Below, in pieces: positions 1,685 to 61,000 of a DNA stretch of 64,000 nucleotides. A program made the position numbers and the translations under genes. Below the pieces are notes generated by a model. The model ran no database searches and was not told the DNA's origin. It saw only the letters and a list, made by a program, of their open reading frames with translations. Within the stretch, counting starts at the first letter, position 1. Every line of letters begins with the position of its first letter. The stretch spans positions 47,058,001 to 47,122,000 of the forward strand of contig OZ231126.1 of NCBI GenBank assembly GCA_965153355.1. The letters are read 5' to 3'. The stretch comes from Flaccisagitta enflata. Its lineage: Eukaryota.

Positions 1685-20266
<18,582 letters not shown>

Positions 20267-30021: not shown

Positions 30022-30053
<32 letters not shown>

Positions 30054-33333: not shown

Positions 33334-36300
33334 TTAACCAAAAAAGTCATCATCGTCGCTGCTCTTGGGATGGTTCCGCTGACGTCTGGCGCCGTCATTC
33401 GAGGACGCGTCATCCAAATCCGAGTCACTTCCGGCGCCACGAAGAACGGAGGGTCGACCACCCGGTTTGGCGCCCACCGAAAACATGTTAAAATTCGTGG
33501 AAGGCTTTTTCGGTTGGTACGTTTTCGTTTGACGTGCAACCGGCTGTTGTTGCTGTTGTTGTTGTTGATGTTTCGATGGAGGATTGGAGATCGATGCCTT
33601 TGAGGCGGACCTCGATGGGGAGCCACTGACGGACTGAGATTTACTCTCGTTAGGTGAGCGTGGCGAAGGAGTGGGTTTCAGCGGGGGGGACATCGAGGAT
33701 TCCTCTGTTTGGATTATGATGTGCCGGTGTGAGTGAGTGTAAGAGAAGGAAAGGCGAAGGAGGAAGAGATAGAAGGGAAGAGACAGAAAAGATGAGGCAA
33801 AGTAAAGGAGATAGCAAAAAGGAGATAGCAAAAAGAACGAAAAGGAGGAAAGAAAGAAAAGGAGAAAAAGAAAAGGAGAAAAGAAAGAAAAGGAGAAAAG
33901 AAAGATAGGAGAAAAGAAAGAAAAGGAGAAAAGAAAGAAAAGGTGAAAAAAAAGAGGAGAAAAGAAAGAAGAGGGAAAATGGAAAAGGAGGAAAAATAGA
34001 AAAGGAGAAAAGAAATGGAGAAAAGAATGAAATGGAGGAAAGAAAGAAATAAAGGGAAGATGGAAAAGGAGGAAAGAAAGAAATGGAGGAAATGGAGGAA
34101 AGAAAGAAATGGAGGAAAGAAAGAAATGGAGGAAAGAAAGAAATGGAGGAAAGAAAGAAATGGAGGAAAGAAAGAAATGGAGGAAAGAAAGAAATGGAGG
34201 AAAGAAAGAAATGGAGGAAAGAAAGAAATGGAGGAAAGAAAGAAATGGAGGAAACAAAGAAATGGAGGAAAGAAAGAAATGGAGGAAAGAAAGAAATGGA
34301 GGAAAGAAAGAAATGGAGGAAAGAAAGAAAGGAAAAGGAAGAAAAGGAGGAGGAAAGAAAGAAATGGAGGAAAGAAAGAAATGGAGGAAAGAAATGGAGG
34401 AAAGAAAGAAATGGAAAAAATGGAGGAAAGAAAGAAATGGAAAAGAAAGGAGGAAAGAAAGAAAAGGAGGAAAGAAAGAAATAGAGGACAGGAAGAAAAA
34501 GAGGACAGGAAGAAAAGGAGGACAGGAAGAAAAGGAGGACAGGAAGAAAAGGAGGACAGAACGAAAAGAAGGAAAGAAAGAAAAAAAGAAAAATGAAAAA
34601 AAGGAGTGAAAACAGAAAAGCAAGAGATGAAAGAAAAGAACGAGAAGAAAGAAAATATACAGTAGAGAAGGAAAGATAGACGGGGGTAGAGAGGGACAGG
34701 TTAATAATATTACAATGGATTTACAGAATATTTTTTTTTTTTTCCTCAAAAGAAAAGAGGGCCAAGACAGCTGTCACCATTCCACTTACTTTTGGCTTTG
34801 CTCCCCAAGACGGCTTTTTGAATGGCATTTTCCAACTCGTCCTCGGACGAAGAGTCGAGAGCCTTGTTAGTATTGACCGCTCTGGAGGTCGACGACTCGC
34901 TCTTCATCGTGCTCATCATTTTCTGATAAGCCAAGTTGGCGTCTTCCTTTTCTTTGGCGTCGCTTTTCGCCTCGCGTTCGAAAATGTCGTCATCCTCGTC
35001 GTCTTCTTCGCTGCGTTGGCGACCGACTCGACTCGTGAATTCCCCTTTTTGATCCCGCGTCTGCTGTTTCTTTGGATTCTGGGAAGTGGCCGCAGTCGCC
35101 GCCGCCGCCGCTGCGGGAGAGCCTTTCTTTTTCTTCAATCCCATGGCTGGTGGTGCGTCGTTTCCAGTTCGTGAGTTGCTCAAATATTGACCCTCGTCGT
35201 TTCCGGTCTCGGCGTTGGTTGAACGATGAGGAGACATTTCCGGTAGAGACGTAGAATCCACGGATCCCAGGCTAGAATCGAGCATATCGAGCGTCCCCGC
35301 CAGATCACCGGCTGTCGTCGGCTTCATAGATGAATCGGGAGGCGCAGGCGGTAGTTGGGAACGTCGAGGCGATTGCTCCTCGCGTTGGGAATTCCGATCC
35401 TCTTCCTCCAAGTCCTCGTCGTCGTCATCATCGTCTTCATCGTTGGCGCTAGGAATACTGATAATCCCTCGTCTTTTCTCTTTGGAAGAATCCTTTTCCA
35501 CTTCAGTCTTGACGGGCGTGTGCTCAGGTCGCGAGTGTGAGCTTGTAGTCACTTCGCGATTTCCTTTGGGTGCATCGACTTGCTCACCCTGCGATGACCG
35601 TCTTTCTTGATACCGCACTCCACCCGAGACAGTTTTCCCGCCGTCGGAAAAGTTGAAAGAATCGATGTCTTCTCTTTCTAACGTTTTTTTATAATCGTCA
35701 ACAAGGTTTCTTTTCTCGCTGGTGGAATTCTGTTGCTCGATCGGGCTGAGTGAGCGTTGGCGAGACATACTTTCATCAAGTGAACCGATGTTCCCATGAG
35801 GACTAAAACTCGGTTTTACAACCTGATGCTGATGAACTGCATATTCAGGCGACGACGACCGATACTGGAGTTGCTGATCAGATGCCACTGGTTGTTGCTG
35901 TATTTTTGTTTTCGGAGGCTCAGATGGCTGTTGCATCTGCTGCGAAGTAGGGCCAGTAATTTGGTTCATTTGTTGGTCAAGTGGAAGAGAACCTTGAATT
36001 ATCTGTTGCTCAGATATCGCCGAAGGATGTAGTATTTGCTGTTCGTTCACTGCGAAGATTGGCTGCGAAACAGACGCCTGCACTTGTGGCAATTGACTTC
36101 CAGGGTTTTGAAGCTGGCTAGCCGCGATCTGATAAGCTTGATGTTGGAGAGAAACATTCACGCCGCCCCCTTGAGGATTACGATGGTCGGAGGGAAAATG
36201 TGTGGGGTGACCCACTAAGCCAGGAGTCATTTGAATTAAGGGGGCTGTTAAGAAATTTGGGGGTTGCGCCGAACAGGCAGAAACGGAATTTGGGGCTTGA

Positions 36301-37386: not shown

Positions 37387-38496
37387 TCATTTATGCTGGC
37401 CTCCGTACGGATCGGCGTTGTAAAGTTCAAACTGTTTCGGCGGCGCCGGCAACATTTGTTTGTCATACATATGGTGCATAACGTCTTGTACATGACGATG
37501 ATAGTTGATTTCCTTGAGCGTAGCGACACCGGCGTAGCGTTTAAGCCAAAAGGCGGGAGCGGCGAAAATGACGCCCATCACACCGCCGACAAGGCCGCCG
37601 ATGAGGCAAGCGCGAGGCCCTAACATGATGCGATTATTAAACCCGGCAAAGGCGGCGCCGGTTACCCAATGCCACCATTTCTCCTCCCCATCGACGACGT
37701 CCAGAGCGATGGCGACGCCTGACGTCACCATCATAAACCCAGTCAGCGGCAACGCGTAATTGAAACCGTTTTTGACGCCCGTGAAGAATAAATAATCGGT
37801 TCTTTTGCGGTTGGCCCCCATCGGCGACGTGTATTTCGTCGCGAGATTGAGCTGCAAGAATTTTGTGCGGGCGGCTTTTTGACCCTTTTTCCATCCGACG
37901 AAGAGTCCAACGGCGAAAGCGGTACACGTAAAGTCGTAAAATATGCGTAATTCCGTAGGAAATACCCCCGTCATGGGATTCCGGGTGACGGCGGCGCGAA
38001 GACGCTCCCGCGGCGTTTCATCCTCCTGACGTCGACGAGCTTCTTCCAGTATGAACTGATAGAGATCAGTGTCCAACGTCTCGTCGTAGGGACCTTTGGG
38101 TACTGGAGTCTCCAATTCCGTCGCCGAGGGCGTCTTGATCAACGCGGAGGAATCGTCGTCGGCGGTGGCGGCCTCTTCCGGCGAAGGATCACCGCCGCCG
38201 AAGTTAATTCGGAACAATCGTTTGACTTTTTCCGACAAAAAACTCGCCGTCGCTCCCAAATTGTGGAAGGTGTCCTCCGCATGGCGACTCACGATAGTCT
38301 CTGGTTGGGATGATAATGACGCGACGTCCGCGGGAGAAGTGACGGCATTTGGAGAGTCATCCGACACGCGGGAAAGGTTGCCGATTGATTGAGAATTGGA
38401 TCGATCGCCGGAGCAGTCTAGGGCTGAAGTTTGGTCATCATGGGGGTGATTATGCGATGAGGCTTTTACTACGGACCACAAGTGAGTTAGTGGCAT
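37387..38496 (-). CDS. TIMMDC1: TIMMDC1-like complex I assembly factor (Tim17/22/23 family), intronless, 369 aa
   Basis: Single ORF with ETPRERLR, glycine-rich TM segments, AARTKFLQLNLATKY..ANRKRTD..GFNYA and GAAFAG..LGPRACLIGGLVGGVMG, typical of TIMMDC1/140up. Confidence 0.85.
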   Translation of the reverse strand: MPLTHLWSVVKASSHNHPHDDQTSALDCSGDRSNSQSIGNLSRVSDDSPNAVTSPADVASLSSQPETIVSRHAEDTFHNLGATASFLSEKVKRLFRINFGGGDPSPEEAATADDDSSALIKTPSATELETPVPKGPYDETLDTDLYQFILEEARRRQEDETPRERLRAAVTRNPMTGVFPTELRIFYDFTCTAFAVGLFVGWKKGQKAARTKFLQLNLATKYTSPMGANRKRTDYLFFTGVKNGFNYALPLTGFMMVTSGVAIALDVVDGEEKWWHWVTGAAFAGFNNRIMLGPRACLIGGLVGGVMGVIFAAPAFWLKRYAGVATLKEINYHRHVQDVMHHMYDKQMLPAPPKQFELYNADPYGGQHK

Positions 38497-44500: not shown

Positions 44501-47500
44501 AAATTTCAAAAAAATTTAGTAGTTGAAGATGATGACAGTAGATGAAGACAGTAGTTGAATGAATGAATGAATTTTATTTTGAAACATGGAATTACAAATA
44601 CGAGTAAATGTAAGACTGCTTCACGGATAGCCCATGAAAGTCTAGTAATGTGACTTTTTTCCAAAGGGGTCCGCGATAATAAAAATTAAAATTCATAAGT
44701 TAAAATAAGAATAAAATCGTAAGATGGTAAAAAGCCGAAATCATATACAGGTAAAAATCCGTCCAACAGAATCCGTAAAATCAGTCATACTGAGAAATCA
44801 AAAACTCTTTTAGTCTCTTCTTAAAAACTCGAAATTCACCAATACTTTTGATATTGGTTGGAAGACTGTTCCAATGCTTGATTGACGCAAAAGAAAAACT
44901 ACTTTGGGACCGAGATAGATCACGAGACAGAACAAAGTTGTACTCGCTTCCACGTGTGTTGTGAGAATGAGCAGCAGATATCGATGTGAAATTAGGGAGC
45001 AAGTATTTAGGAGCAAGTTTGTTTCGAATGCGAAAAATATGCATCATTTGAAAGAATTTAACCCGATCCGGAATGTTCAGCCAGGACAATTCTCAATGGT
45101 TTTTGCAATCAACATGTGCCCTGTGGTCCCAGCCGTTTATGAAACGGACCATTTTTCGTTGAACTACATTAAGCCTTTCCTTCAAGACCGCCGATAAACC
45201 AGAATACCAGGAACTGCAACAGTAGTCTACGTATGGCTGAATAAGCGCAGAATATAGGGTCTGCCTACTTTTCTTGTCTAACAACTGAGACTGGCGATAA
45301 AGAAAAGCCAGTCTTCCTGCGCAGACTTTCATCAAATTCCCCACATGGGCAGAACCGTTTACATTTTCGTCGAGTAAAACACCAAGATATTTTACAGTAA
45401 ACTTGCGCTCAACAGGCATCCCATCACAGAAAACCCGAAAATCCACCCCTTTCAATCTTCTCTTTGAACCAAAGAGCAATGATTCCGTTTTACCAACGTG
45501 AAGGGATAGCCTGTTGTCCACAAGCCATTTTTTACAGCTTGAAAGTTCAATGCTAAGGCGATCAGAAATTATTTTAGCATCACGATGCGCAAAAAGAAGT
45601 GCTGAGTCATCCGCGTAAAGAGAGAGTCTGCATGATAGGCTAATGTTCATGTCATTTATGTATATTAAAAACAACAAGGGACCTAAAATGCTACCTTGTG
45701 GCACTCCACAGGTGACAGGCAAAAACTCAGATCTCGAACCCTTAACATCAACACACTGACGCCGATTTTGTAGATAGGAATCAAACCAGGTTGTGGAAGA
45801 AATACCAATAGATTTAAGTTTTTCACAGAGGATAGCGTGATCAACCGTATCAAATGCCTTCTGCAAATCAATGAGTACCATACCGACAAAATTACCTTTA
45901 CTCAATTCATCCTTAATGAAATCTGAAAGGCCAATCAAACACGAGTCAGTGGAATAGCCACCGCGAAAACCTGATTGATTCTCGAAAAGTAGTCCTCGCT
46001 TTTCTAAATATTCACTAAGTTGTGAGTGTACAGCACGCTCGAGAATTTTCGAAAGAACACTTAAAATACTGACAGGCCTGTAATTGCCTGGATCAAGCGT
46101 CGAACCTTTTTTAAAGAGAGGAATAACTTTCGCCTCCTTGAAAGCAGTTGGAACGGTTTCGGTAGTAATGGAAATATTAACAATGTGGGCAACTGGCCCA
46201 ATTATGCAATCCGCGCCATCATGCAGAAATAGAGAAGATATATCATCCAGTCCAACTGCTTTCCTGGTATTCAGAGATGAAAGCTCTTTCCGTATAAAAT
46301 GAGAAGAGACAGGAGACAGGCAGAAATTAGAGCATAAGCCGATTCTATGTGAATAAAAACTCTTGAAAATAGTGGCAGCCGTATTAAAAACTCCAAGAGG
46401 ATTTGGCAGTTTAGAAACAAGTTTCGAAGCAACCGAAGTGTAGAAGGTGTTAAAAATCTGAGCAACACATAATGAATTAAACTTCTTTTCGCCATTTTGC
46501 TCCAAGACTATAGATGATGAGCCAGCAACTTTTTTACTAAAGCCAAGAGACTTCAAGTGGTTCCAAAGCTTCCCCGAATTACCCCTATTCCTTTCAACCC
46601 CATTCTTGAAAAAACATTCCTTAGCCAACTTGATGTCTCTTTGAACTTTATTCCGTACCTGAAAATACTCCTTATATAAAACATCATTCGACCGGTCTTT
46701 CCTAAAGCGAGAAAAAAGCCTATTCCGTTCCTTAATACCCGAAAGAATGTGGGAATTCATCCATGGATTCAACTTGTTTCGGACTCGAATTTCACGTAAA
46801 GGCGCAACTGTGTCAATTACTGAGCGAAAGAGACGATTGAATTCTAGAAGACAAAAATCTACGTCACTAGAATTTAAGACCGATGACCAATTAATTCTAC
46901 TTAAAGCAGCCGTAAAAGACGCCTTAGAATAGTTTTTAAAGGACCGTACAAATCTGACATTTTGACATGAGAAAACTTCCTTTGCACAACTTCTCGAACT
47001 GAAAGTCACCATATGATCACTGAAACCCTCCGGGATCACCCCACTTTCACTAATCAGATCGCTAACATTCGTAAATATGTGATCAATAAGAGAAGACGAT
47101 GTGGAAGTAATCCTAGTAGGTTCAGTGATCAATTGGTCGCAACCGAAAAAATCAAGAATCTCTTTGAACTTATCCAACAGAGGAGAACGAACTTGTAAGA
47201 AATCAATATTTAGATCACCCAATACATGAAACTCAGTTCCAGGGCTAATTTTAGAAAGGCATAACTCCAACTTAGATAGAAACCCATTATCATTGGGTGG
47301 CCGGTATATAGAGCATACAAGTATACCTTTAGTCCGAGGAAGCAGAAGCTCTATCCAAGTGGCTTCTAGATCGTCGACGGAAAGATCTGGTCGTGGGTTG
47401 AAGGCAATATTGTCGCGAATGAACATTGCGACACCGCCGCCGTTACGATTTCGATCATGCCGAACAATATTGAAGCCAGGAATATGTACCTCGCCATCAC

Positions 47501-50500
47501 CAACCGAGGAATCAAGCCATGACTCAGAGACCGCGAAAACAGATGCCTTAGTCCGTGAGAGCAGAAGTCGAATTTCTGGTAGTTTGGGAATAAGAGAACG
47601 CACATTTGCGTGAAGAAAGTGGAGGCCTTTAGACGTGAGGACGCTAGGAATAGGACAGGATAGAAACGACGATGAAAGAGAAGTAGAGGAAGGAGCCGAG
47701 GAAGAGTTAGCAGTGGCGTCGGCAACGTGTTCGTCGACACCCGTATCATTTGCGAAAGGAAGCGAAGAGAGGCTGCAACGGTCGCAGACAAATGCCAAAT
47801 CAACCCCGTCACGCACGCACTCGTTGTACTTGGTGAGAGAGACAGAGAGAGAACATCGTATGTGCGTCCATTTAAGGCAGTAATCGCACTCAACAGCCTT
47901 ACTCGCCTTGGTTACGCCCTTCGCGCAAACGACACAAGGATGAGCAACATTTCGCGTCCTTTTCCCATCTGAACTCGTAGACGACGTAGACGGTCGCGGT
48001 CCCGGATGAAGATTGACGTCGCCGGAAAGAAGAAGCAGTTGACGTTGATGCTGTGTATGTTGCTGGTGCTGTGTATGTTGCTGGTGCTGTTGTTGATGCT
48101 GTTGTTGATGCTGTAGTTGATGTAGCTGTTGATGATGTAGATGTAGATGCGGCGTAGTAAAAGAGGGAGAACAGACGCTCAAATGATTAAGATGTATGAT
48201 GAGCGAACAGGTGAGAAATGAAAGGAGCGAGGAAGACATTGTCGACTCGGATATTGCCGCCGAAGCTAAACGAGAAATTGAAGCCAAAATTCCTTTGCCG
48301 CACTTGAAAAGTTTTGAAAACCACGTGCACGATGCCCGGTCGTCGCCCACGTCGGGTTAGTTTAAAGTCTTTTTACATTTTCCGCGTAGAATCGCCATAG
48401 GCCCAACATCGGGGACGTCACCATCAAAACCCTGACAGCTTGTCTTCCAATGTTTCTTCAACCTCAAATTTGACTAATCCAGTTTGCTTTTTCAATCTTC
48501 GGTCACGTCACCCTCCGACGCCCAAAATGGAGAACTTAAAAAAACAATTCCAGTATTCAATGTTTCCAGACTTTTCTTATTCTATCGCCGCATCTGATTG
48601 AACTTAATCCATTTTTATCTTCGACTATTCCACCGGAGACACATTTGTAGTCGTCTTAGAGTTGATTATTGAAATTTTTAAATTAAGCAAATAAAAGAAT
48701 GATGACAGTAGTTGAAGACGATGACAGTATTTGAAGATAATACCAGTAGTTGAAGATGATGACAGTAGTTGAAGATGAATCTTGAAATCCATGATGGCAA
48801 ACCTAAAGAAAAATCAGAATGTAATAAATGAGCAAGTAAAAGAATTCCAACTCCAATCCTCTATAGAAATTGCCAAAGTCCTAGAAACATATTACTACAT
48901 TAATAGGCTAATATCTTATAAACCAGACTTCAGATATAATTCAAATTTTGCAAGGGCACTTCAATTAATATCCTTTACTTGTATACCAAATTAAAAAAGA
49001 ATTCACATAACTTTGCTACCCTTTGCCTATGTAAACTGTGAATTATGGCGATTATTTTTGTAGTTTTTTGTGATTATTTGTCAATTTCGCCTATTTTGCT
49101 TTCCTCTCTGTTGATCATATTTGCGCCTGTTATTATCTCTGATTTTCTTCTTAGTTGATCAGTTATAATGTCTTGCGTGGTTCAAGCCTGGTCATGTTCC
49201 GGAGGCGAAATGCTACCTGGTGAGTCTTGGTGTGTATAAGAGGCTGGTTGGGCTGTACTATAGTTATATAGTTTGCTAGATTCCCTTGGTTAGTCAGTTA
49301 TTAGGTTTGTGGTAGGTCTAATCCTTCCTTCTCCCCTTGCCCCTTTCTTCTTTCTTTATCTGCAGCGTTTTGATACGACTTTTTACCTAGAAGACTCGAT
49401 GACGTGATTTTGGTGACGAATTGGCGCGATGATGTCAAACGATTGACTTGATTATGTACAACGAATTGGCGTGACGATGTGCAACGAGAAAGATCGGATA
49501 TGCTGAACATTTCGATGAGACTTGCTGAACATTCGATGGGATTTGCTGAACATTTCGACGAGATTCAAGGAACATTGACGTTGACGTTGGCGTGACGTCA
49601 TTTCCGGTGCGACTTCATCTTGGCGTTGGCGTGACTGCGGCTTTGGCGGCGTCATTCTTCCAGCCATCACTTGGGATTCACGGTACGAGCTTTTGGTGAT
49701 TGACCGTGTCATATGCAGTTTTCTACAGTATCAAAACGGACCTGGACATAACCAGTAATTTTTGTACCCAACCACAACCATGAGCACACAACCACAACAG
49801 GACGCAGGAGAAGGCGGGGAGCGACCAGTTTGGGACAGGCGGATCATCTCCAGAGTAAGGAGGGAGCTGAAACAAGAATACCTACTCGTGGAATCCGCCG
49901 TCAGTTTTGCTTCCGTCAGCTCCGAGCGGTCCGTGCTCATACGGTTTAACGATACAGCGAACAAGTTTTGTGACTTGGTGAACGCAAAGATCGCAGAGTA
50001 CAACAACTGTGTGATAGTAACAAAGGTCGCAGAAAGTGCCGCAAATGATTTGATGGTAGACATACACAGCTACAGGACGAAACTCGACACAACTCTCCAG
50101 CCGAGATATGTGGAGGAGGAGGGGGATGGCCACAGGGATGTGTCGTTCGAGGCCGGATCGCCGATAGAAAAAAAGGCGACGCCGGTCGAATTGAGAGCAA
50201 CGGATGGTGCGGCAGCGGCGCAGAACGGAAAAGACGCCGCACTAGACAAAACGATGCGAATCTCGGACAGCGACCTGAGCGAGGAGGAGGAGGAGGAAGA
50301 GAAGGAGACCGAAGCCACAGAGGAAAACGGCAGGGGGGGAGGCAACGCCGATCAAAACGGCGTAAGCGACGCCCCAGCCAGCGGCATATTCGGCAGGTTA
50401 ACGAATCTGTTTAAAAACTCAACCCCGACGGACGCTGTACCGGCCGTGAACGTGATTCCACCAACACCGGCAGACAAAGAAAGATCGCATACAAGAAGCG

Positions 50501-53500
50501 CCGCATCCATCGCGAGATCGCTCCAAGCGAGAGAAGAAAGAGATAAGAAGAAACAAGAAGAGGAGGAGCAGATGGAGGCGATGAGGAAGCAGAGTGAGGC
50601 AGAGGAGGTAGAGGCAATGCGGAAGGTGGAGGAGATAAGGAAGCAGAGAACATTAAACGAGAAACTACACGCTGCAAAGATGGACGGATTGGAAGCAATC
50701 CATGATAAGCAGCAACAAATCATCGAGGATGAGGAAAGTGAGGCGGCAGCGGAAGAGGCGATGAAAGACCTGGAAAAAACAGTGGAAGGGGCGAAAGGGG
50801 GTAAAGAAGACAATAATGCAGCAGTTGAGAGATGGGCAAAAGGAAATGTGCGCGAGCCCATTGCAAAAATTCTGCCGAAAAAAGTCGAGGTAGCGGCGCC
50901 GCCGAAAGGAAAAGCGGCGGTGAAGCTAGACCTCAAAAACATTAAAGTCACACCCCCAAAGGCAAAATCCCTTCCCGCGATCACCCCCATTATCCGGAAA
51001 GGCCGCATGAACTCTACATCGGAGAAAAAAAGGAGTAAAGAGGCGAGAAGGCTTTCGGAGGAAAAAGAAAAAGCGGAAAAGCGAGCGAGAGATTTGGAGG
51101 CTCAACTGAAACAGGTTCAAGAAACCGCGCGCCAAATGGAAAGCGCACTGAATGCGGTGGAGGAGGATGAGGAGGAGGAGGAAGATGACCTGGAGAAGAT
51201 GCCGTTATCTCCATCATACACAGAAAACAGTGGGTTTTGCGAAATGGTGAAAGTGCAAACCCAGATGTACGCGATGTCGCAACTAAAAGAGGCCCGTCCT
51301 GAGAAAAAATTCGCCGCATGTGGAAAAAAAGTGGATTTTTCAAAACATATGCTCGAATTTGAAACGGCGCTCGGGATAGTAGGCCTAACGGAAACGATGA
51401 AATTGAACGAGTTTCATCACTACTTTGAAGGGTCTGCGCTGCAGCTGATTGAAGCGGAGTTGAGAAGAAAAAACGATGCAGAAAAAGCAGTGTCTGATGC
51501 CATATCAAAACTAAATCGCAAATTTGGCACGAGAAAAGAAACGGCTTTGGAGATGATGGACGAGCTGTTGCAAGGGAAGCAGATTGGCGAGAAGGACCAC
51601 GGCGGGTTGCTGTCATTTTATTGTAGGTTGACTAGCATCCATACTTTGGCTTGCGACACCAATCGTGGAACAGAATTCGAGAACAAACTGGTCGTCGACT
51701 CGATCCTCAGCAAGAAGATTCCCCATCTGTCAGCTAAGTGGGCAAAGCGGTCTGTAAAAGACGCAATGGCCGGGGGAAAGGGATTGAATTTTGCGGCTTT
51801 TTTGAGTTTTCTTGATGAAGAACATGCGATTGCAGAGTATTGTTACAAAAACTCAGGTCAAGCGCAACAGATCAAGCCGATTGGCGCGAAAATAGCGGCG
51901 ACGACGGCAACAACCACCAAGAAGGAAGGAGCGACGGCAGCAGCAGCAACACCGCCCAAACCAGCAGGCGGATGCGGGCGCTGCGGTGGCCAACATCGAC
52001 TTCCGGCGTGTGACATTTTCAAAGGTCTCGCGGTGGGAGACAGAAGAAAATTTTGTATGAACACGCGCAGCTGCTATCAATGCTTGGAGGCGGGGCATAT
52101 GGCGAGAAATTGCCAATCACCCGACAAGTGCCCAATTTGCGGATTGGGGCATCACGAGCTGCTTCATCCGGTGGACGAGACGGCGCCGGCGCCACCTGGC
52201 GAAACAAATAATACGGCATGACTAGCGACGCCGAGACAAAACTCGATATTTAAGGTCGGCGGGGATGATGGAGCATGGAGACTAATTGTGCCGTTGTATG
52301 TGACGAACACGAGTGGAGACAAAATCGCCACATTTGCGCTCCTTGATGGAGGCGCAAATCGCCACGTAGTGTCAGAGGCGATTTGCGCAGATCTTGGTAT
52401 TGAAGGCAGGGATGTAAATATGAAAATTACAACTCTGGACAAAACCGTTGAAGGAGTGAGAAAAGTGGCAGATGTGTCTGTTGTGGGGACAAATGGTTTT
52501 GAGTTGGACCTGAAAAACGCGATCTTCGGCGAAATCATTGCGACGGAAGGCGATAGACCGCCGGAAAATGTCGACGTGGAAAATATGGACCATCTGAGCG
52601 ACATTGATTTTCCCGCGTTTCCCGAAAATATCGCCGGAGGAAAAAAGATTGGCGTTATCATCGGGGCCGAACATGCCAGAATTTGGAGTACGGGCGAAAG
52701 ACGCGTCGGCGACGCGTCACTTCCGGTGGCGCTGGAGACGGGGTTCGGCTTTTGTTTGATCGGCCCAAAGAAGAACATTGACTCGCATTGCTTTGTTTGT
52801 AACCATGTTTCTTTTCAGAGTTGCCCCACAGATACTGAAAAAGACATGAAAAAGTGTTTTGCGAGTGAATTTGAGAGAATCAAAGGAGATGATGAAACAA
52901 TGTCGTTGAAGGATAAGCATGCTGTGCGTCAATTGGAGGAAGGTATCATTTGGGACTCCCTCGCCGAGAGATACCGCGCGCCACTTCCGCATGTCGTCAG
53001 CCGGGAGGCCACCGCCGCCAAAATCAATAAAGTGGATTCGGGCGGTATGGCATTAGACCGACTGTGGAGGACGGGAAGGCAGATGCGAAAAGATCCGGAG
53101 AGACGACGGATAACGTTCGAAACAATGGCGAAATTCGATGAGAAAGGTAGAGTGGTAGAGGTGGATCCGGCGGAGCATGAAGCCACGCCGACAGACCGAC
53201 CAAAATGGACGATTCCGATTCACGTGACTGACAAGCCCGGAAAACCCGGGCAAGTCAGGATCTGTCACGATTGTCGGGCTTCTGTGGGTGGAATCTGCCT
53301 AAATGACTTTCTATTGGACGGCCCCCAACTTGCATGCGACATACGCGGTGTACTGATGCGATTTCGCGACGAGGGCGAAGTAGCGGTAGGCGCCGATATT
53401 AAGGACTTCTTTCATGAAGTGTATATCGCTAAGGAGGACGAGGCCGCCTTTAGATACTGGTGGTTCAAATCGGAAGATATGGACGATGTTCAGCTAAAGG

Positions 53501-56500
53501 GCTTTTTGGGACATGTTTTTGGTGCAAAAAGTTCAAATTTTGTCGCGATCTTCACAAAACGCTTCCACGTTAACAACAAAGCCGCTGAATATGGCGCCTT
53601 GGTTGTTCAAGCCGCGAATCGTAATTTTTATGTCGATGACCTCCTAAAGTCGTTGAGGAACACAAAAATCGCGAAGGAATTCCGGATAAATATGACGGCG
53701 GCGATGAAAGACGGTGGCTTCACTCTCTGCAAATGGCGCTCGTCCAAACCGGAAGTGCTTGATGGAATGGAAGCGGCGCCGGCCGAAAAAGACTTTTGCG
53801 GGCCGGCTGCCGACGCGGACGATATTGGGAAATTGTTAGGGATGCAATATTCGTTTTCTGCCGATGCTTTTTTTTACATTCCAGATCAGGAAAAGCAAAA
53901 TTTAAAAGTGGAAACGAAGCGGCAAATGCTGCAGGTGATTGCATCATTTTTTGACCCGTTGGGTTTCTTGGACCCTTTTGTGATATGGGCGAGACTCATT
54001 CTGCAGAAAGTGATGAAATTGCCAATTGGATGGGACGAGAAAACGATTGAGACGAATCTTCTTGACGAGTTCGCGAGGTGGCAGAGCGATTTTGTGTATC
54101 TTAATGGCTTCAAAATCTGTCGTTGGACGGCGACTTTGGCGACGCAGGATGCAAAACGGCAGCTGATGGTATTCTCGGACGCAAGTAGCGAAGGGTACGG
54201 CGTCGTTATATACGTCAGACGCGCAACGCCGGACGGCGTCATCCACATATCCATCGTCTGCTCGAAGGCGCACGTAGTGCCGGTAAAAGACGCTGAAGCC
54301 GGCCACCACGATTCCATCCCGAGGTTGGAACTGCAAGCGGCGAGATTGGCGGCTAGGATGCGAGTCAACGTGGAAAAAGAGACAGGGAGTTATGATAATG
54401 TGGTAATGTGGACTGATTCTGAATGTGTGATCAAACAGTTGCATGATACCGAAACTTGTTTCAAAGTCTATTTTTCCAATCGCCTTTCAGAAATTCAGGC
54501 GTTGACGAGCGTTGATGAGTGGCGGTGGGTTCCGAGCGGTGACAACCCTGCGGATGACTGCTCCCACGGCCTTCTCGCCAGCGATCCGAAGTGGGCACGT
54601 TTTTTGAATGGTCCGGACTTTTTGCGGAACCGGGAAGAAGATTGGCCGTCAAAGCAGATAGCGACGGAACCATTCCCAGCGCACATTTTGGCGACGACGG
54701 TGACAACGCCGGAAGTTACTCAATGCTCATGGGTGACAAAAATATCGTCGAGTGTCGCGGCATGGAAGGCGAAGGTACGGCGGATCGCGTGGGTGAAGAA
54801 AACTCTCCTCCAGGCGGTGTATCGGCGCCGCGGGGAGACCGGCGCCGTCGAGGCACGTTTGACGACGCCGGATTTACGGGATGCCGAGTTGCTGCTGCTG
54901 AAGGATATACAGCGGCGACACTTTACGAAGGAATTAGCGGCGTTGGCAGTGCAGCCGGCGAAGCCATCAAAGCGCCCGTCTGTGCAACCGAGTTCGACGG
55001 TAGCGGCGTTGAATCCCTTCATCGACGACGCCGGCATTTTAAGATGCAGAGGAAGACTGGAAAAGGCGGATTATCTGCCTTTTGATGCGAAGCATCCGAT
55101 CATTTTGCCCCATGGTGACGACGCTGTACTGGAACTGGTTCGCGGCATGCATGAACGATGCCTCCATGCCGGCGTTGAACAAATTTTGGGGGAATCGCGG
55201 CGCCGTTTTTGGATAACAAAAGGGCGCCGGCTTGTGACTCGTGTTGTAAGGGCGTGTGTGGGATGCCAAAAACTCTTTAAATCGCCTCAATCGCAGCAGA
55301 TGGCGCCACTTCCGTCGGAGAGAACTTTGGTTTGTAGGCCTTTCGAGAACACCGGCGTGGATTGCTTCGGCGCGATCAAGTGTAAGATCGTCGGGCGTGC
55401 ATTTCATGAAGTAAATGTTGCGTTGTTCACTTGTATGGCGACAAGGGCCGTGCATTTCGAAGTTTTGCGGACGATGGAGGCGTCCAGTTTCATCGACGCT
55501 CTGCAACGTTTCCGCGCCCGGAGACCGGCGGTCCGCTGCCTGTTTTCGGATCAAGGCACTAATTTCACCGCCGCCGAGAAGGAGATCGCGGCTGAAGTGG
55601 CTTCTTGGAATGCGTCGTCGGCGAGTGATCTGCATCTGCTGGGGCTGGAGTGGAAATTTAATCCTCCAACGTCTCCGCATCGTGGCGGCGTTTGGGAGCG
55701 GATGGTGAGATCAGCGAAAAAACACTTATCATTCGTGCTCCAACGTGATAATTTGAACATCGAGACTCTGACGACTGTGTTGGCCCAGGCGGAATTGACA
55801 ATGAACTCGAGGCCGATTACTTATGTGTCTGATGAGCCGGGGGTTCATGCCTTGCGGCCGATTGATTTTTTGTGTCCGGGGGTTTTTGCATCGTCGGACT
55901 GTGATATTCTGCCCCCTACCCCACCTGGAGGCGATAATTTGCGGTATAGTTGGCGCCAGTCTAGGGCGCTGGTGGACGAGTTTTGGAAGCGGTGGTCACG
56001 TGATTATCTGTCAGCACTCCAGGCGAGACCGAAGTGGAGATCATCGGAACCAAATCTGCAAGTCGGCGATGTGGTGTTGTTGGTGGATGATCAGTGTCGA
56101 CGGGGTGATTGGCGATGTGGAGTCGTCATGGAGACTGATGGAGGCGAATTGGTGAGGACGGTGACGGTTAAGACTGCTGCCGGCAAAACTTTTTCGCGTG
56201 ATAGAACGAGAGTGGTATGTTTGGAATTGGACCCAATGCGGGCTGAGGAGTAGTTCTTCCTCTTTGTACAGTATTTTTATTTTAGCGTATGCTTTTCGTG
56301 ATTGTTTTTCCGTTGCGCTTTGGGTTTAATTATTTGGAGGATTTTTTGTTGATTGACGCGTTTTGCTTTTTTTGTCGACGATGATTTTGCCCCATCTCTT
56401 TTCTTTAAAGATTATCATTGACGTTTTTCAGCTGATTTTGCGTTATTTCGACTTATTTTTTCTTTTTGATTTTTCGCTTGGCGCTATGGATTGGTTACTT

Positions 56501-57978
56501 AAATGTGGATTTTGTATATGTCATTTTGGTGCAATTTGATGTATTGATTTGTTCGCCTTGAATATTATTTTGCTGTTGCTGTTTCTTTTTGCCTTTCTAT
56601 CTGTGTCCCTCTTCTTTCTTTTAGTTCCCTAGTGGTTATTTAGTGTTAGTGCATTTTAGTTTCTCAGTTGGTGGAAGTTGGTGCTTGTGGAAGTGTCGTA
56701 TTTTTTCTGTGGTATTTTTTCGTGGTAGTGATAATGTCGTCGGTGGATGCTGGAGTGGAAGTGGAGATGGAGGTGGGTGATGGTGCTGGTGCAGCCGGTA
56801 CCGGTGTGGGTGTGGGTAGCCCGCGGATGAGGGGTGGTAGTGCTGGGAGTTTCGTGGGTGGTGCTCTGGAGGAAGACCAGGAAGGGGTGGATGCGGTGGT
56901 GGGTGATGAGGAAGGGGTGAATGCGGTGGTGGGTGATGAGGAGGGGGGTGAGGTACCTCCGGTGCCCTATGCGGATTTTCTGCAGCAGGTACCGGAGGGG
57001 CGGGCGTTGAGGAGGTTGGCATGGATGAAGGACGGGGTGGTGTTGGGCGGCGGAAGGGTCACAGCGGCCGACTTGATGGTGGGCAGCGGGCCGGTGGCTG
57101 TTCCGCCGTGGATGAACTCTTGGGTTGAAATGGACAATGTGGATAGGGATCTTTGTGGATTGCGCCAAGTGGCAGTGGCCTTCCACAAAGTTGCCCACCC
57201 GTCTCTCCCCCACCTGTGTGTGCTGCAGGTGTTGCGGCAGGATCATCTGCCGAACTTTTATTTGATGGTGGATGGACATGATCCGAAGGAATTGTTGGAG
57301 ATTCCGTCTTATAACTTTGATGGAAAGAACGTCATCTTTTGGGGCGAGGAGCCGGGGATGCGTTTTGCGGTGACGACGGCGGTGGAGGAGGAGGGCTTCT
57401 GCGAATATTGGAGCTGGCATGATGAGGAGACTCATCACTCGCCGAAATGGCAGGCTTGGCCGAAGTCGGGGAGGCCGGGTTGTCAGGCCAACGCATTTGG
57501 GCCTTTAGCGCCGGTCTTGCAGTTTTGGGCGGAAGTGGAACAGGTGGTGGCGGCGGCATCGGCGGCACCTACTCCGGCGTGGATGCGGCCGGCATTGAAA
57601 CGGATCGTCGCGGCTTGGAAGGAGAAGTATGACTCTGTTTTGAAGAAGCCGGAGTATGTGCCGGAGGAGTTCTTTGGGGCAAAGCGGCGCGGCGGCCAGG
57701 GGAAGGGGATGTTGGCGGCGCAGGAGTTGTTGGCAGATGCAATGCGGGGGATGCATTTTACGGAGCCAGAGGCGGCCAGTGGGGCATTGCCTGCCGGGGA
57801 GGCAATGCCGCCTCTAGTGCCGGCGGAGGAAGTGGTGGTGGCGGCGCCGGAGGTGCCGGCGGCGGTGGCAGCGTCGTCGGCGGCGGTGGCGGCGTCATCA
57901 GCGGCGGCGGCGGCGACGGTGTCTTCGGTGGTGAGGGCTGTGGTCGGTGGGGGTGGCGTTCCTCCGGCTGCGGTTGAT

Positions 57979-58012
<34 letters not shown>

Positions 58013-61000
58013 AGGCGGAGAAGCAGAGGAAGAAAACGAAGAACAAAGAGAGGCACGATAGGGCGAAGATGGCAAGGGAGGCGAAACGCGAGGAGGAGGC
58101 TCGTGCCAAGGAGGAGGAGGAGCGGCGGCGCTGGGAGGACCAACAGCGGCGTTGGGAGGAGGAGCAGCGCCGGGTTGAGGAGGAAGGGCGCCGGGTGGAG
58201 GAAGAGCGGCGCCGGTTGGAGGAGGAGCGGCGCCGGCGGGAGGAAGTGGCTGCGGCGGAAGTTGCGCGGAAGGAGGAAGAGCTGCGCCGTGCGAGGGAGG
58301 CGTTGGCAGGATGCGGCGGCGGTGGAGGTGCCCCTGGCAGGCCCTCATCGTCGTCATCACAGTGGCGTGAGAGGGGCCATTGTGGCTTTCGTGCCCCTCT
58401 TCCTCCGTCGTCTTCAGTCTCGTCGGGGCGGGTCCAGCCGCCGTCTCGGGCGCTGGACGCGTCGTTTGCGTCATCGTCGTCGGCGATGTCGCAGGAGGAA
58501 GTGGACTTGGCGGTGGCGCAGGCATACGCGGCGGGTGCGCGCCGCGAGCGGGAGGCGAGGCGAGAGAGGGAGCAAGGGGTGCGCGAGCGCAGCGACGACC
58601 GTGCTTCAGCCCCTTCAGCAACATCAACGCCACGGGCTGAGAGGCCGTCTCGGCCGCAGTCCCGCGGCGGTTATGGCGGTGGTGGTAGTGGTCGTCATGG
58701 ATGGCGCGGCGGTTCGGCGTCGGGCCGGCGGCGTTAGAAGCATGCCGCCGTGTCCGTCCGTCCGTCCGTCTGCTCGCCCGTTACTTAGGTAGGTTTTGCC
58801 TGCGTCTTCCCTGTGTTTTTTTTTGAGGGGGGACGGTTGATTAGGTTTGAAGTATGATTCAAACGGGGGGATTGTGAATTATGGCGATTATTTTTGTAGT
58901 TTTTTGTGATTATTTGTCAATTTCGCCTATTTTGCTTTCCTCTCTGTTGATCATATTTGCGCCTGTTATTATCTCTGATTTTCTTCTTAGTTGATCAGTT
59001 ATAATGTCTTGCGTGGTTCAAGCCTGGTCATGGTCCGGAGGCGAAATGCTACCTGGTGAGTTTTGGTGTCTATAAGAGGCTTGTTGGGCTGTACTGTAGT
59101 TATATAGTTTGCTAGATTCCTTTGGTTAGTCAGTTATTAGGTTTGTGGTAGGTCTAATCCTTCCTTCTCCCCTTGCCCCTTTCTTCTTTCTTTTATCTGC
59201 AGCGTTTTGATACGACTTTTTACCTAGAAGACTCGATGACGTGATTTTGGTGACGAATTGGCGCGATGATGTCAAACGATTGACTTGATTATGTACAACG
59301 AATTGGCGTGACGATGTGCAACGAGAAAGATCGGATATGCTGAACATTTCGATGAGACTTGCTGAACATTCGATGGGATTTGCTGAACATTTCGACGAGA
59401 TTCTATGAACATTGACGTTGGCGTTGGCGTGACGTCATTTCCGGTGCGACTTCATCTTGGCGTTGGCGTGATTGCGGCTTTGGCGGCGTCATTCTTCCGG
59501 CCATCACTTGGAATTCACGGTACGAGCTTTTGGTGATTGACCGTGTCATATGCAGTTTTCTACATAAACTGCCTAAGTCATAGTAACATATCACTACATA
59601 AATAAGCTAATATCTCATAAAGCAGATTTCAGATTTAATTCAAATTTTACAGGGCTTATTTATTTACTACCCTCTACTTGCATACCAAATTAGAAAAAAA
59701 TTCACATACCTTTACTACCCTTTGCCTATGTAAATTGCCCAAGTCCTAGCAACATACTATTACATAAATAAACTAATATCTCATAAACCAGACTTCAGAT
59801 TTAATTCGAATTTTGCAGGGGTTGTTTATTTACTACCCTCTACTTGTTTACCAAATTAAAAAAAAATTCATAAACCTTTACTACCCTCTACCTATGTAAA
59901 ATGCTTAAGTCCCAGCTAAATATTACTACAAAAATAATAGGCAAAGGGTAGTAAAAGTTAATGAATTTTTTTGAAAATTGGTGCACAAGCTCCTATTGAC
60001 CTACAAACAACACCAGCAAAGTTTCATAAAATTCTGAAGTCTGGTTCCAAAAATATGAGAGGGTTTTAAACAGACAGACAGACGGACAGACAGACTACAC
60101 ATCACTGCTACTTCATAGTCACCGACGAAAGCTGTTCGTCGGGGACAAAAAAAAAGGAACCGGTAGTACCTATAGTGAACATCCAGCCAAAATTAAGATT
60201 GAGCGTAAGTTCAAGAATATTCAGCTATACAAAATTATCATTAACAAGTCCGATCAGGCAACGATGCGTCCTGACTTTGTCTCTGCTTGTATTGACTTTG
60301 GCGCTCAACTCGGATGGTCAGAAAGGTGAAAAGACATAGAACCATAAGAGGCTCTCAAAACATCCTAACGACTGTTTGACTTGATGCGTGACACCCTCGC
60401 GGCCGAAAATTGCCAAAAACTACGATTTTCAAGGTGTAACTGACGGAGGGACGGACCAACCGACCGATGGAGGGACGGACCAACCGACCGACGGACGGAT
60501 GGACGGACAGACAGAACCTCATAGATATGCAAGGACGCATCTAAAAACGAACTTGCAATGACTTTGCATGAATGGAGTACACAAAATTGAAAACAAATTT
60601 GTGTTCACGTTTCACACCTTACCAAATGACGCTCTCACCTGTGGGGAAACGGGCATCTGCCGCCCCTCATGCATTGTCCCATCTGGAATTCTTTGCATAC
60701 AAACATGCTCTTGATGCCGCCCTTGCACTTGACGCATCTCGATTTCGGGTATGGACCGAGACAATCGATACACACGTGACGTTTCTCGCATTTCACGCCA
60801 TTGTCGCATCCCTTGGCGTGATTAAACGCTTCGCAAATTTCTTTAACGTAACGCCAGCCTTCCTCATCGACCTCGGTGTCCTCGGGTTCCGGTTCGGACG
60901 TCTCGCCCTTGGCGGCTTTCGCTTCCTCTTCTTTGATCTTCTGCGCGCAGCTAAGCAGCGTGGAGATGTTGAGGTCGTACAGCGTCAATGCGTCCATCAT

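Follow-up and report, generated by a model that had tools for sequence, protein, structure and literature searches.

A third open reading frame (ORF3) follows pol and precedes the 3' LTR in a retrotransposon of the window, the 64,000 nucleotide stretch of Flaccisagitta enflata contig OZ231126.1 analysed here. As this is the env position, the locus raises the question of whether ORF3 is a gene, whether it belongs to the element and what kind of protein it would encode.

The retrotransposon and its third open reading frame

The element is an intact, young Bel/Pao (Belpaoviridae) LTR retrotransposon with a length of 10.5 kb and the following components.

49037-59564, forward strand: intact Bel/Pao LTR retrotransposon (LTR pair, target duplication, open gag and pol)
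49032-49036 and 59565-59569, forward strand: 5' and 3' copies of the target-site duplication TAAAC (direct sequence reading)
49037-49727, forward strand: 5' LTR, 691 nt, TG...CA termini (alignment and BLAST against the 3' LTR)
49780-52221, forward strand: gag from its first ATG (translation), closing with TGA at 52219 in the context TGA CTAG
52222-56253, forward strand: pol (Pfam and motifs in translation), with a stop only at 56251-56253
56734-58737, forward strand: ORF3, 667 aa plus a TAG stop at 58735-58737 (translation, shuffle test, relatives)
58861-58871, forward strand: polypurine tract AAACGGGGGGA (sequence reading), one base ahead of the 3' LTR
58873-59564, forward strand: 3' LTR, 692 nt (alignment and BLAST against the 5' LTR)

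The two LTRs were 98.1% alike, with 12 mismatches and one gap over 692 columns (alignment, BLAST), and motif reading of the 5' LTR gave TATAAG at 49235, a donor-like CTG/GTGAGT at 49220 and no AATAAA. The gag product is E/K-rich in its middle part and bears three CCHC/CCHH-like knuckles close to its C-terminus, where the match to Pfam zf-CCHC (E=0.0059, 17.1 bits) was under the cut-off of 20.8. A single in-frame TGA marks the gag/pol boundary and pol continues the gag frame, matching Peptidase_A17 (4e-36), DUF5641 (1.4e-22) and Integrase_H2C2 (1.3e-7) in Pfam and carrying protease (LLDGGAN), RT (YVDD), RNase H and integrase (HHCC) motifs in translation. A neighbouring intact LINE at 45093-48350 on the minus strand is unrelated to the element.

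Translation confirmed the intact frame from ATG 56734 that had been described in the initial annotation, with 667 codons up to the TAG. Only the terminator interrupts this frame, compared with 4-22 stops in the other five, and G is frequent at its third codon positions, which is also the case in gag and pol. None of 2000 mononucleotide shuffles of ORF3 reached 667 open codons (mean 144, maximum 296) and neither half stayed open in any of 2000 shuffles. The initial description of a large ORF is therefore sound in that its length is not due to chance, while the C-terminal half required a correction as it consists partly of tandem repeats (GGC-like at 57840-58018; a 21-nt unit x6.3 at 58113-58244) and other frames are also long at 57758-58792 (281 and 291 aa). 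These repeats and competing frames would fit a frame open by chance, and encoding no gene, in a G+C-rich, A-poor and repetitive region. Such an origin is contradicted by the shuffles and the stop counts, and also by the diverged protein relatives and the constraint, extending into the tail, within the cluster of one relative (below); it can be given almost no credence.

Layout of the ORF3 protein

The ORF3 product is apparently a soluble, modular and non-enzymatic protein, as judged from its predicted sequence, with the following regions.

56734-57099, forward strand: residues 1-122, acidic, Gly-rich and indel-prone N-terminal region (composition, copy comparison, repeats)
57100-57693, forward strand: residues 123-320, conserved Trp-rich core of an undescribed family (relatives, alignment)
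57769-58023, forward strand: residues 346-430, Ala/Pro/Ser-rich linker with GGC-like repeats (composition, repeats)
58024-58248, forward strand: residues 431-505, basic cluster (KQRKKTKNKERH) and then a charged helix of ER/K type (composition; 21-nt x6.3 repeat)
58534-58734, forward strand: residues 601-667, R/E-rich and then RG/RGG-rich tail (translation, composition)

The N-terminal region includes a 30-nt x2.3 tandem duplication (56879-56947) that was missing from close copies. The Trp/Tyr/Phe-rich core reported earlier was borne out, with W/F/Y reaching 18% in residues 201-250; its invariant residues were W, A, W, P-x-W, F, W and P..[FW]G, which are aromatic, Pro and Gly, and a catalytic set of invariant acidic, His or Ser residues was not found in it. 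The E/R helical region was likewise seen, as residues 445-504 are 75% E/R/K with 33 i/i+4 opposite-charge pairs and 10% hydrophobic residues. The tail (SRGGYGGGGSGRHGWRGGSASGRRR) contains just two RGG, 11 residues apart, and the protein is probably RNA-binding, judging by the composition of this RG-rich segment.

An envelope (membrane-fusion) gene that has degenerated or is very atypical, of the sort present in a few Bel/Pao elements with an env-like gene, would suit the location of ORF3 between pol and the 3' LTR, and the ICTV profile gives gag, pol and env as the genes of Belpaoviridae (PMC8742986). Env-like third genes of Bel/Pao elements, with the env of the hookworm Atlas virus (PMC9094657) as an example, occupy this same slot. 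ORF3 differs from such genes in its layout of a soluble charged protein. No signal peptide was found, in keeping with the acidic N-terminus, and there is no credible TM helix, since the best 19-residue Kyte-Doolittle window (1.65) sits in the Ala/Pro/Ser linker. The only RX[KR]R is RRRR within the charged helix, which is not a meaningful furin site, and there are 0 N-glycosylation (NX[ST]) sites. Searches against Pfam, NCBIfam and PDB sequences returned no match to ORF3, and no Pfam match, envelope families included, was found in the ORF3 protein (P0001) or in the other 10 proteins of alignment A2. Intracellular proteins are where a charged helix and an RG tail are typically met. The full-length relative P0009 opens with a hydrophobic stretch in its gene call (2.13 on a 19-residue Kyte-Doolittle window), which could be taken to favour an envelope; this start is best regarded as translated spacer because the upstream extension that contains it is 11 times more variable than the ORF, and stops interrupt the corresponding stretch here. 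An envelope gene is accordingly very improbable, and the earlier statements that ORF3 lacks a signal peptide, furin site and C-terminal TM helix, and is no typical Env, both held.

Relatives of ORF3 and its place in the element

An exhaustive HMMER search with ORF3 residues 70-345, cut at E<=0.001, gave 11 proteins. One of them (P0013) was dropped as a repeat-protein artefact. The remaining 10 ranged from 88% down to 23% identity and were all unnamed proteins from ENA (marine) metagenomes. Homologues, for which the initial annotation had proposed a search, thus share the modular layout down to 22-28% identity (HMMER, BLASTP), and BLASTP linked P0001 with P0009 (4e-13), P0001 with P0014 (2e-14) and P0009 with P0014 (8e-16). 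The full-length relatives P0009 (691 aa) and P0014 (732 aa) both run from an acidic N-terminus through a WFY-rich core and Ala-rich and E+K/R-rich regions to a G-S-R-rich tail, and three lineages share an 'MSS' start, namely P0001, P0010 and, at residue 115, P0009. Longer, fused forms of the relatives were not found in a word-index search, which is a weak one.

The P0009 cluster consists of 30 near-identical members on many contigs. Among its 11 full-length members 18 of 114 columns varied in the translated upstream extension, as against 8 of 577 from 'MSS' on and 1 of 171 in the tail, so that the extension varies 11-fold more than the ORF (Fisher p=1.2e-9). The codons of these 114 residues imply 22-56% T compared with 10-37% for the rest. 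The lower variation from 'MSS' on points to purifying selection on the ORF3 family, as seen through the cluster of this one relative. Among the indels listed between DNA copies, those inside ORF3 were 3n or compensated (a 42-nt skip; -1/+1 three bases apart) and fit a coding frame, and those in the spacer ahead of it were non-3n (+1, 67, 71). Some close copies look broken, departing abruptly after residue 169 (P0034, P0004) or 76 (P0033).

A recently transduced host gene that rides along without serving the element, its metagenome relatives being cellular genes of related animals, was also considered. The G+C content of ORF3 (63-66%) is above that of gag and pol (50-54%), and a fairly recent capture would fit this too; the relatives, which are known as proteins on contigs, may or may not sit next to a pol or LTR. 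In three runs, contigs with related pol sequence diverge at 56081/56114 from the copy analysed here, and the depth of run X1 drops about 10-fold (2962 to 222) on passing from pol into the spacer, so that many related elements may lack this ORF3. However, relatives keep the 'MSS' start and the module order both at 42-49% identity and at 22-28%, the upstream stretch of P0009 resembles the T-rich spacer found here, and its cluster is distributed as for a repeat family. In addition, ORF3 exactly fills the interval from pol to the polypurine tract and its junction with the LTR has a depth of 687 in X1, about 7-8x that of a single copy (about 85-96). A captured host gene is thus unlikely, if the least so of the alternatives, and the diverged relatives, the P0009-cluster constraint and the lack of Env hallmarks speak for a real gene of the element that is lineage-specific and accessory in nature; an accessory protein had been proposed in the initial annotation.

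The combined reading that ORF3 is a selected third gene, that its soluble modular product is most likely an RNA-binding helper and that it has its own mRNA is, on balance, probable. The protein would consist of the acidic N-terminus, a globular Trp-rich domain of about 200 aa, an Ala-rich linker, the basic cluster with an ER/K single helix and the RG/RGG tail, and might act on the RNA or RNP of the element in export, chaperoning or packaging. It would then be an RNA-binding accessory or scaffold factor comparable to helpers of the Rev/CERV type or the LINE ORF1p type rather than to Env. Helpers of the latter type combine a helical module with a basic RNA-binding, chaperone region. ORF3 would similarly be a non-enzymatic product of a retroelement in which a long helix is paired with a basic region that binds nucleic acid, although there is no sequence relation and its helix is of the charged ER/K kind, not a hydrophobic-core coiled coil.

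LTR elements with a non-env ORF3 are a known kind, while the ORF3 protein family here is undescribed. The element lies at the top of the stated Bel/Pao length range of 4.2-10 kb (PMC8742986; de la Chaux & Wagner, PMC3118150). CERV, the accessory protein of the C. elegans Ty3/gypsy element Cer1, acts on the genomic RNA of its element and is made from a spliced mRNA (PMC10309623), the mode that may also apply to ORF3. Both are non-Env accessory proteins of LTR retrotransposons with homologues confined to a narrow host group. In each, flexible linkers connect structured domains, and there are a helical module and an NLS-like cluster of basic residues. Their settings differ in that CERV belongs to a Ty3/gypsy element with exons 1-3 in the gag frame, whereas ORF3 is downstream of pol in Bel/Pao, and, compared by description, the H, M and G (GTPase-like) domains and Cys-rich loop of CERV stand in contrast to the Trp-rich core, ER/K helix and RG tail of ORF3. 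Bdelloid rotifer LTR retrotransposons carry non-envelope ORF3s, a GDSL esterase and a DEDDy exonuclease, showing that different kinds of gene can occupy the env position (PMC5408684). These are likewise family-specific and 3' of pol; they are recognisable enzymes with intact catalytic residues, unlike the core here, which has no family match and no invariant catalytic set.

The spacer and proposed expression of ORF3

The very T-rich spacer of about 480 nt noted earlier after the pol stop was measured at 480 nt and 51.7% T, compared with 16-24% in gag, pol and ORF3, and the acceptor-like sites reported ahead of ATG 56734 were located with their ends at 56624, 56667 and 56728.

56254-56733, forward strand: T-rich spacer, 480 nt (base composition, stops, ATGs)
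56612-56624, forward strand: acceptor-like site TTCTTTCTTTTAG (pattern match only)
56661-56667, forward strand: acceptor-like site TTCTCAG (TTTCTCAG; pattern match)
56715-56728, forward strand: acceptor-like site TTTTTTCGTGGTAG (pattern match), within a 14-nt x2.5 tandem repeat

In the ORF3 frame the spacer is closed by 9 stops, and it holds 6 ATGs ahead of the start, the most 3' of them at 56539. These make translation of ORF3 from the genomic RNA unlikely, and a separate subgenomic mRNA is consequently a reasonable inference from the sequence. The ORF3 frame is already open from 56650/TTG 56668, 5' of ATG 56734. Such an mRNA could arise by splicing of the LTR transcript onto the acceptor-like site at 56624, 56667 or 56728, or by initiation at an internal promoter inside the T-rich spacer. 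Both routes are on record for the third gene of Oikopleura Tor, expressed from the 5' LTR transcript or an additional internal promoter (PMC4402516), although Tor is Ty3/gypsy-like with membrane glycoproteins as the third gene and ORF3 is a non-Env gene of Bel/Pao.

Seven acceptor-like sites were counted against 3.1 +/- 1.7 in shuffles, of which 3.5% of 2000 reached 7, and the 192 nt ahead of ATG 56734 lack an ATG, a run found in 5.1% of shuffles; both departures are marginal. Polypyrimidine-AG sites shortly 5' of the first ATG, following this ATG-free run, would also suit an operon-like transcript with SL trans-splicing in which ORF3 is the downstream cistron, an alternative named in the initial annotation. 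The same sites are equally usable for cis-splicing from the donor-like site in the LTR, and the Tor third gene has a documented internal promoter. Trans-splicing is a candidate route of rather low probability. The only RNA run from the same organism, of poly(A) RNA (about 6% read), gave 6 reads, all partial and 90-95% alike, with neither a junction read nor a leader read among them. Metatranscriptome contigs over the element were thin and may be DNA. The 67 nt after TTCTCAG (56667-56733) were absent from some DNA copies, and runs X1 and X2 both gave DNA contigs with the joint 56666 to 56734. The spacer had no match in Rfam, and its RNA fold gave a z-score of -1.96.

The element and its third reading frame

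The window holds one complete LTR retrotransposon with three open reading frames, all in the same reading frame, which ORF3 happens to have in common with gag and pol. Its parts, in window coordinates on the + strand, are as follows.

Features of the element
49037-59564, +: complete LTR retrotransposon
at both ends, +: LTRs of 691 and 692 nt with TG...CA ends, 98.1% identical (12 mismatches, one gap)
49780 (ATG) to 52219 (TGA), +: gag, with an E/K-rich middle and CCHC knuckles visible in the translation
after the single in-frame TGA through to TAG 56251, +: pol
56254-56733, +: spacer
56734-58737, +: ORF3
one base upstream of the 3' LTR, +: polypurine tract, AAACGGGGGGA, as read in the sequence

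Both LTRs are flanked by a 5-bp target-site duplication (TAAAC), giving the direct LTRs and duplication of Bel/Pao elements. Pfam matches in pol comprised Peptidase_A17 (4e-36, residues 543-711), Integrase_H2C2 (1.3e-7, residues 948-995) and DUF5641 (1.4e-22, residues 1221-1311), while a DGG protease motif and a YVDD motif were read in the translation N-terminal of these domains, and together the matches and motifs follow the Bel/Pao order PR-RT-RH-IN. The element is a member of Bel/Pao (Belpaoviridae). Its length of 10.5 kb is at the upper limit of the 4.2-10 kb range in the ICTV profile, where the family is also given a polypurine tract of about 10 nt and a primer binding site that pairs with tRNA-Arg or tRNA-Gly (PMC8742986). 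There were no tRNA genes within the 64-kb window against which to match the primer binding site of the element. The gag zinc knuckle scored 17.1 bits against Pfam zf-CCHC, under the cut-off of 20.8, and a PDB-sequence search for a capsid in gag gave no match. The window contained no further copy. At the gag/pol boundary (52219-52225) a lone TGA lies in the context TGA CTAG with both genes in one frame. This context favours stop-codon readthrough according to the accessible text of bioRxiv 10.1101/2021.04.18.440353, and with the shared frame it indicates that pol is probably made by readthrough rather than frameshifting.

The initial annotation described a large intact ORF in the env position preceded by a very T-rich spacer with acceptor-like sites, and its coordinates for all three agreed with ours. 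The spacer is 480 nt long and 51.7% T, polypyrimidine-AG acceptor-like sites end at 56624, 56667 and 56728, and ORF3 runs uninterrupted from ATG 56734 for 667 codons to the TAG at 58735-58737. Such a length was reached in 0 of 2000 shuffles (mean 144 open codons, maximum 296) and each half of ORF3 was open in 0 of 2000, with one stop over the region in the ORF3 frame versus 4-22 in each of the other five frames. Within the spacer, acceptor-like sites were mildly enriched (7 versus 3.1 +/- 1.7 in shuffles, 3.5% of which reached 7), an ATG-free stretch of 192 nt was mildly unusual (found in 5.1% of shuffles), and RNA folding was slightly better than in shuffles (z = -1.96). No Rfam family matched the spacer.

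A 67-nt stretch just upstream of the ORF3 ATG (56667-56733) was present in some DNA contigs and missing from others, including one contig each of the DNA sequencing runs X1 and X2. It adjoins a 14-nt tandem repeat of 2.5 copies, and its loss takes away two of the three acceptor-like sites. Absence from some copies marks the stretch as dispensable and non-coding, and its variable presence argues that ATG 56734 is the start of ORF3.

The ORF3 protein (P0001, 667 aa) is modular. In a core of about 200 residues (123-320) the invariant positions are W, A, W, P-x-W, F and W, with P..[FW]G at its end. They include no acidic residue, His or Ser, an argument against an enzyme. In keeping with the E/R helical region of the initial annotation, residues 445-504 are 75% E/R/K and 10% hydrophobic, and 33 pairs of opposite charge stand in i/i+4 spacing. 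By its composition this segment qualifies as an ER/K single alpha-helix and not as a hydrophobic coiled coil. The protein also carries a basic cluster, KQRKKTKNKERH, and a tail ending SRGGYGGGGSGRHGWRGGSASGRRR, in which RGG occurs at 644 and 658 within a stretch of 35% Gly and 29% K/R. The canonical di- or tri-RGG box has a closer spacing. RG/RGG counts were 19 in the relative P0014 and 8 in P0009, five of the latter in the tail. The acidic N-terminus is the part of the protein prone to indels; a 30-nt tandem duplication in ORF3 (56879-56947; 10 aa, EGVDAVVGDE/EGVNAVVGDE) is missing in the close copies P0034 and P0035.

The suggestion that ORF3 does not encode a typical Env held up. Its N-terminus is acidic and Gly-rich, and neither a signal peptide nor a C-terminal transmembrane anchor was found, the top 19-residue hydropathy window (1.65) lying within an Ala/Pro/Ser linker. 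The N-glycosylation and furin-type SU/TM cleavage of an Env were likewise not apparent, with no NX[ST] site and a sole RX[KR]R match, RRRR, within the ER/K helix. In Pfam, neither P0001 nor the 11 members of a protein alignment (A2) matched anything at E<=1 beyond noise. Pfam, NCBIfam and PDB-sequence searches with P0001 alone and with the 11-member A2 returned low-complexity noise, the PDB-sequence matches being confined to low-complexity parts, and no homology to a known fusion-protein family was seen at the sequence level. Comparison of the core with the element's own gag and pol (hhalign, A2) gave no relation, and an ESM Atlas look-up of the relative P0009 gave no hit. The analysis shows that the element encodes, in ORF3, a soluble and modular protein that is conserved and is not an Env, one more case in which an ORF in the env position does not mean an envelope.

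Relatives, constraint and copy variation

An exhaustive HMMER search with residues 70-345 against 1.84 billion representatives identified 11 proteins at E<=0.001, ten of which were kept; P0013 (1734 aa, E=6e-4, five short stretches) was dropped as a repeat-protein artefact. Fragments made up the closer relatives at 88% (P0004), 55% (P0008), 49% (P0005), 43% (P0006) and 42% (P0007) identity, and the distant relatives P0009, P0010, P0011, P0012 and P0014 were 23-28% identical. A word-index search yielded four near proteins including two new ones, P0035 (293 aa, 91% identical, nine member sequences) and P0036. With A2 it gave no longer forms such as a pol-ORF3 fusion, on which it is weak evidence, and with residues 70-345 it returned nothing. 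All relatives came from ENA metagenome assemblies and none was named. A sequencing-run look-up placed the DNA in one organism and, across several studies, in marine metagenomes. Two metagenome loci retrieved from JGI with a single-protein query were rejected as bacterial contigs with a peptidase-like ORF sharing just 'DGKNVIFWGE'. Neither a viral contig collection (queries P0001 and P0009) nor prokaryote genome contigs contained a match.

The cores are related in pairwise BLASTP comparisons (P0001-P0009 4e-13, P0001-P0014 2e-14, P0009-P0014 8e-16). The complete series of an acidic N-terminus, an aromatic-rich core, an Ala-rich linker, an E+K/R-rich block and a G/S/R-rich tail recurs in the two distant relatives of full length, and three lineages have the 'MSS' start in common.

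In the P0009 cluster the gene caller extended the proteins 114 residues upstream of 'MSS', with extension codons implying 22-56% T. In an alignment of the 11 members of full length, 18 of 114 columns were variable in the extension versus 8 of 577 from 'MSS' on (Fisher p = 1.2e-9), and the low-complexity tail had 1 variable column of 171. Stops at the homologous place in the window suggest that the extension is untranslated spacer. If so, the ORF would evolve about 11x slower at the protein level, a figure that covers the cluster of a relative rather than the element's own family and a T-rich stretch that may itself mutate faster.

Among the variants listed, ORF3 had a non-synonymous change at 57631 and a synonymous one at 57672. 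Listed indels in DNA contigs included, within ORF3, a skip of 42 nt and a -1/+1 pair separated by three bases, and changes of +1, 67 and 71 nt in the spacer. The sequences of P0034 and P0004 part abruptly from ORF3 past residue 169, and that of P0033 past residue 76, indicating that some copies are broken or rearranged.

The G+C content of ORF3 is much above that of gag and pol, as would fit a gene that may have been captured by the element. Pol-related contigs in three runs diverged from the window copy at 56081/56114, and summed depth in X1 was 2962 ahead of the border between pol and spacer, dropped there to 222 and ran at 388-1062 over ORF3, with exact single-copy-like contigs at a depth of 82-96. 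Depth is not equal to copy number, and the drop suggests, together with the contig divergence, that ORF3 is carried by just part of the wider pol family, which would also be compatible with capture.

Expression and proposed function

The spacer carries nine stops in the ORF3 frame and six ATGs, the last at 56539, which rules out readthrough from pol and makes scanning from the genomic RNA implausible. A separate ORF3 mRNA is therefore a sensible inference, and it could arise by cis-splicing, by trans-splicing or from a promoter within the spacer itself. An internal promoter for a third gene has a precedent in the Oikopleura Tor elements, as described in the accessible text of PMC4402516. By pattern match, two strong donor-like sites exist in the element, each an 8/9 match to MAG|GTRAGT, one at 53935 in pol and one (CTG|GTGAGT) at 49220 in the 5' LTR with a counterpart in the 3' LTR. 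The site at 49220 lies 15 nt upstream of the sole TATAAG of the LTR and could act as a donor only with transcription beginning further upstream. Poly(A) RNA of the same organism (X19, about 6% of the run, 12.2 million records) gave six partial reads, 90-95% alike, which fell in 3 of 30 bins and showed no junctions. From the metatranscriptome X10 came thin contigs that may be DNA. Their depth over the ORF3 core was close to zero and their loose ends at 57837-57912 derive from GC-repeat look-alikes; they were rejected as expression evidence.

An accessory role, as the initial annotation had proposed, is borne out by relatives with the same layout, by constraint in a related cluster and by the absence of Env hallmarks. 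Judged by composition, the RG-rich tail and basic cluster would bind nucleic acid, the ER/K helix would be a rigid spacer, and binding or assembly would be the task of the Trp-rich core domain. We favour on this basis a putative RNA-handling accessory factor that would work like CERV of the C. elegans Ty3/gypsy element Cer1. A Rev/CERV-like RNA-export protein would come from a spliced subgenomic mRNA, locate to the nucleus, bind the element's genomic RNA and be required for its export; what is seen in ORF3 is a basic cluster and an RG-rich tail, and the acceptor- and donor-like motifs are pattern matches. Chaperones of the LINE ORF1p type are another functional parallel, although ORF3 is not a member of the CERV or LINE ORF1p families. 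CERV is described in the accessible text of PMC10309623 as the product of a spliced mRNA that is needed for nuclear export of the genomic RNA.

Bdelloid LTR elements also have ORF3s other than envelope genes, and those covered in the accessible text of PMC5408684 are recognisable enzymes, unlike ORF3 here. Third genes described in Bel/Pao are env-like only, being occasional and of unknown function in the ICTV profile (PMC8742986) and again env-like only in the accessible sections of PMC3118150. No description of a Bel/Pao non-env ORF3 protein of this sort was found in the literature, supplements and subscription papers aside. LTR retroelements with a non-env ORF3 are already known, and it is the protein family of ORF3 that is, by sequence comparison, new.

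More tentatively, and with greater doubt than confidence, we propose that ORF3 founds an old, undescribed accessory-gene family making a marine-animal Bel/Pao clade 'complex', in which a subgenomic mRNA would give a protein of Trp-rich domain, ER/K helix and RG tail that handles the element RNA (export, chaperoning or packaging), a Rev/CERV-like solution arisen independently in Belpaoviridae. A third gene of this kind, conserved, non-envelope and probably RNA-binding, would bring a layer of accessory proteins to Bel/Pao and would be a second case, beside CERV, in which LTR retrotransposons have evolved an RNA-handling factor of their own, and anonymous marine-metagenome proteins would gain a name.

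Surroundings of the element

The insertion is hosted by a 166-bp satellite array (48860-49036 and 59565-59937), a second block of which lies 43 kb upstream of the element at 6002-6523. Adjoining the element upstream is an intact LINE (45093-48350, minus strand) with an open 1085-aa ORF matching the Pfam families Exo_endo_phos (endonuclease, 2.8e-10) and RVT_1 (9.8e-33). Several 400-490-aa 'ORFs' (2846-4210, 7908-9374, 33334-34749 and similar) had no Pfam match; they overlap long TC-/AG-rich micro- and minisatellite arrays with extreme strand skews and are most likely repeat artefacts rather than genes. An 18-nt unit is repeated in tandem 33.8 times with 99% matches at 30153-30761, within a 357-aa ORF (29845-30918, minus strand). 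A 369-aa ORF (37387-38496, minus strand) with a weak match to the Tim17/Tim22/Tim23 family (E=2.5e-4, 21.8 bits versus a cut-off of 32.7) may be a host gene.
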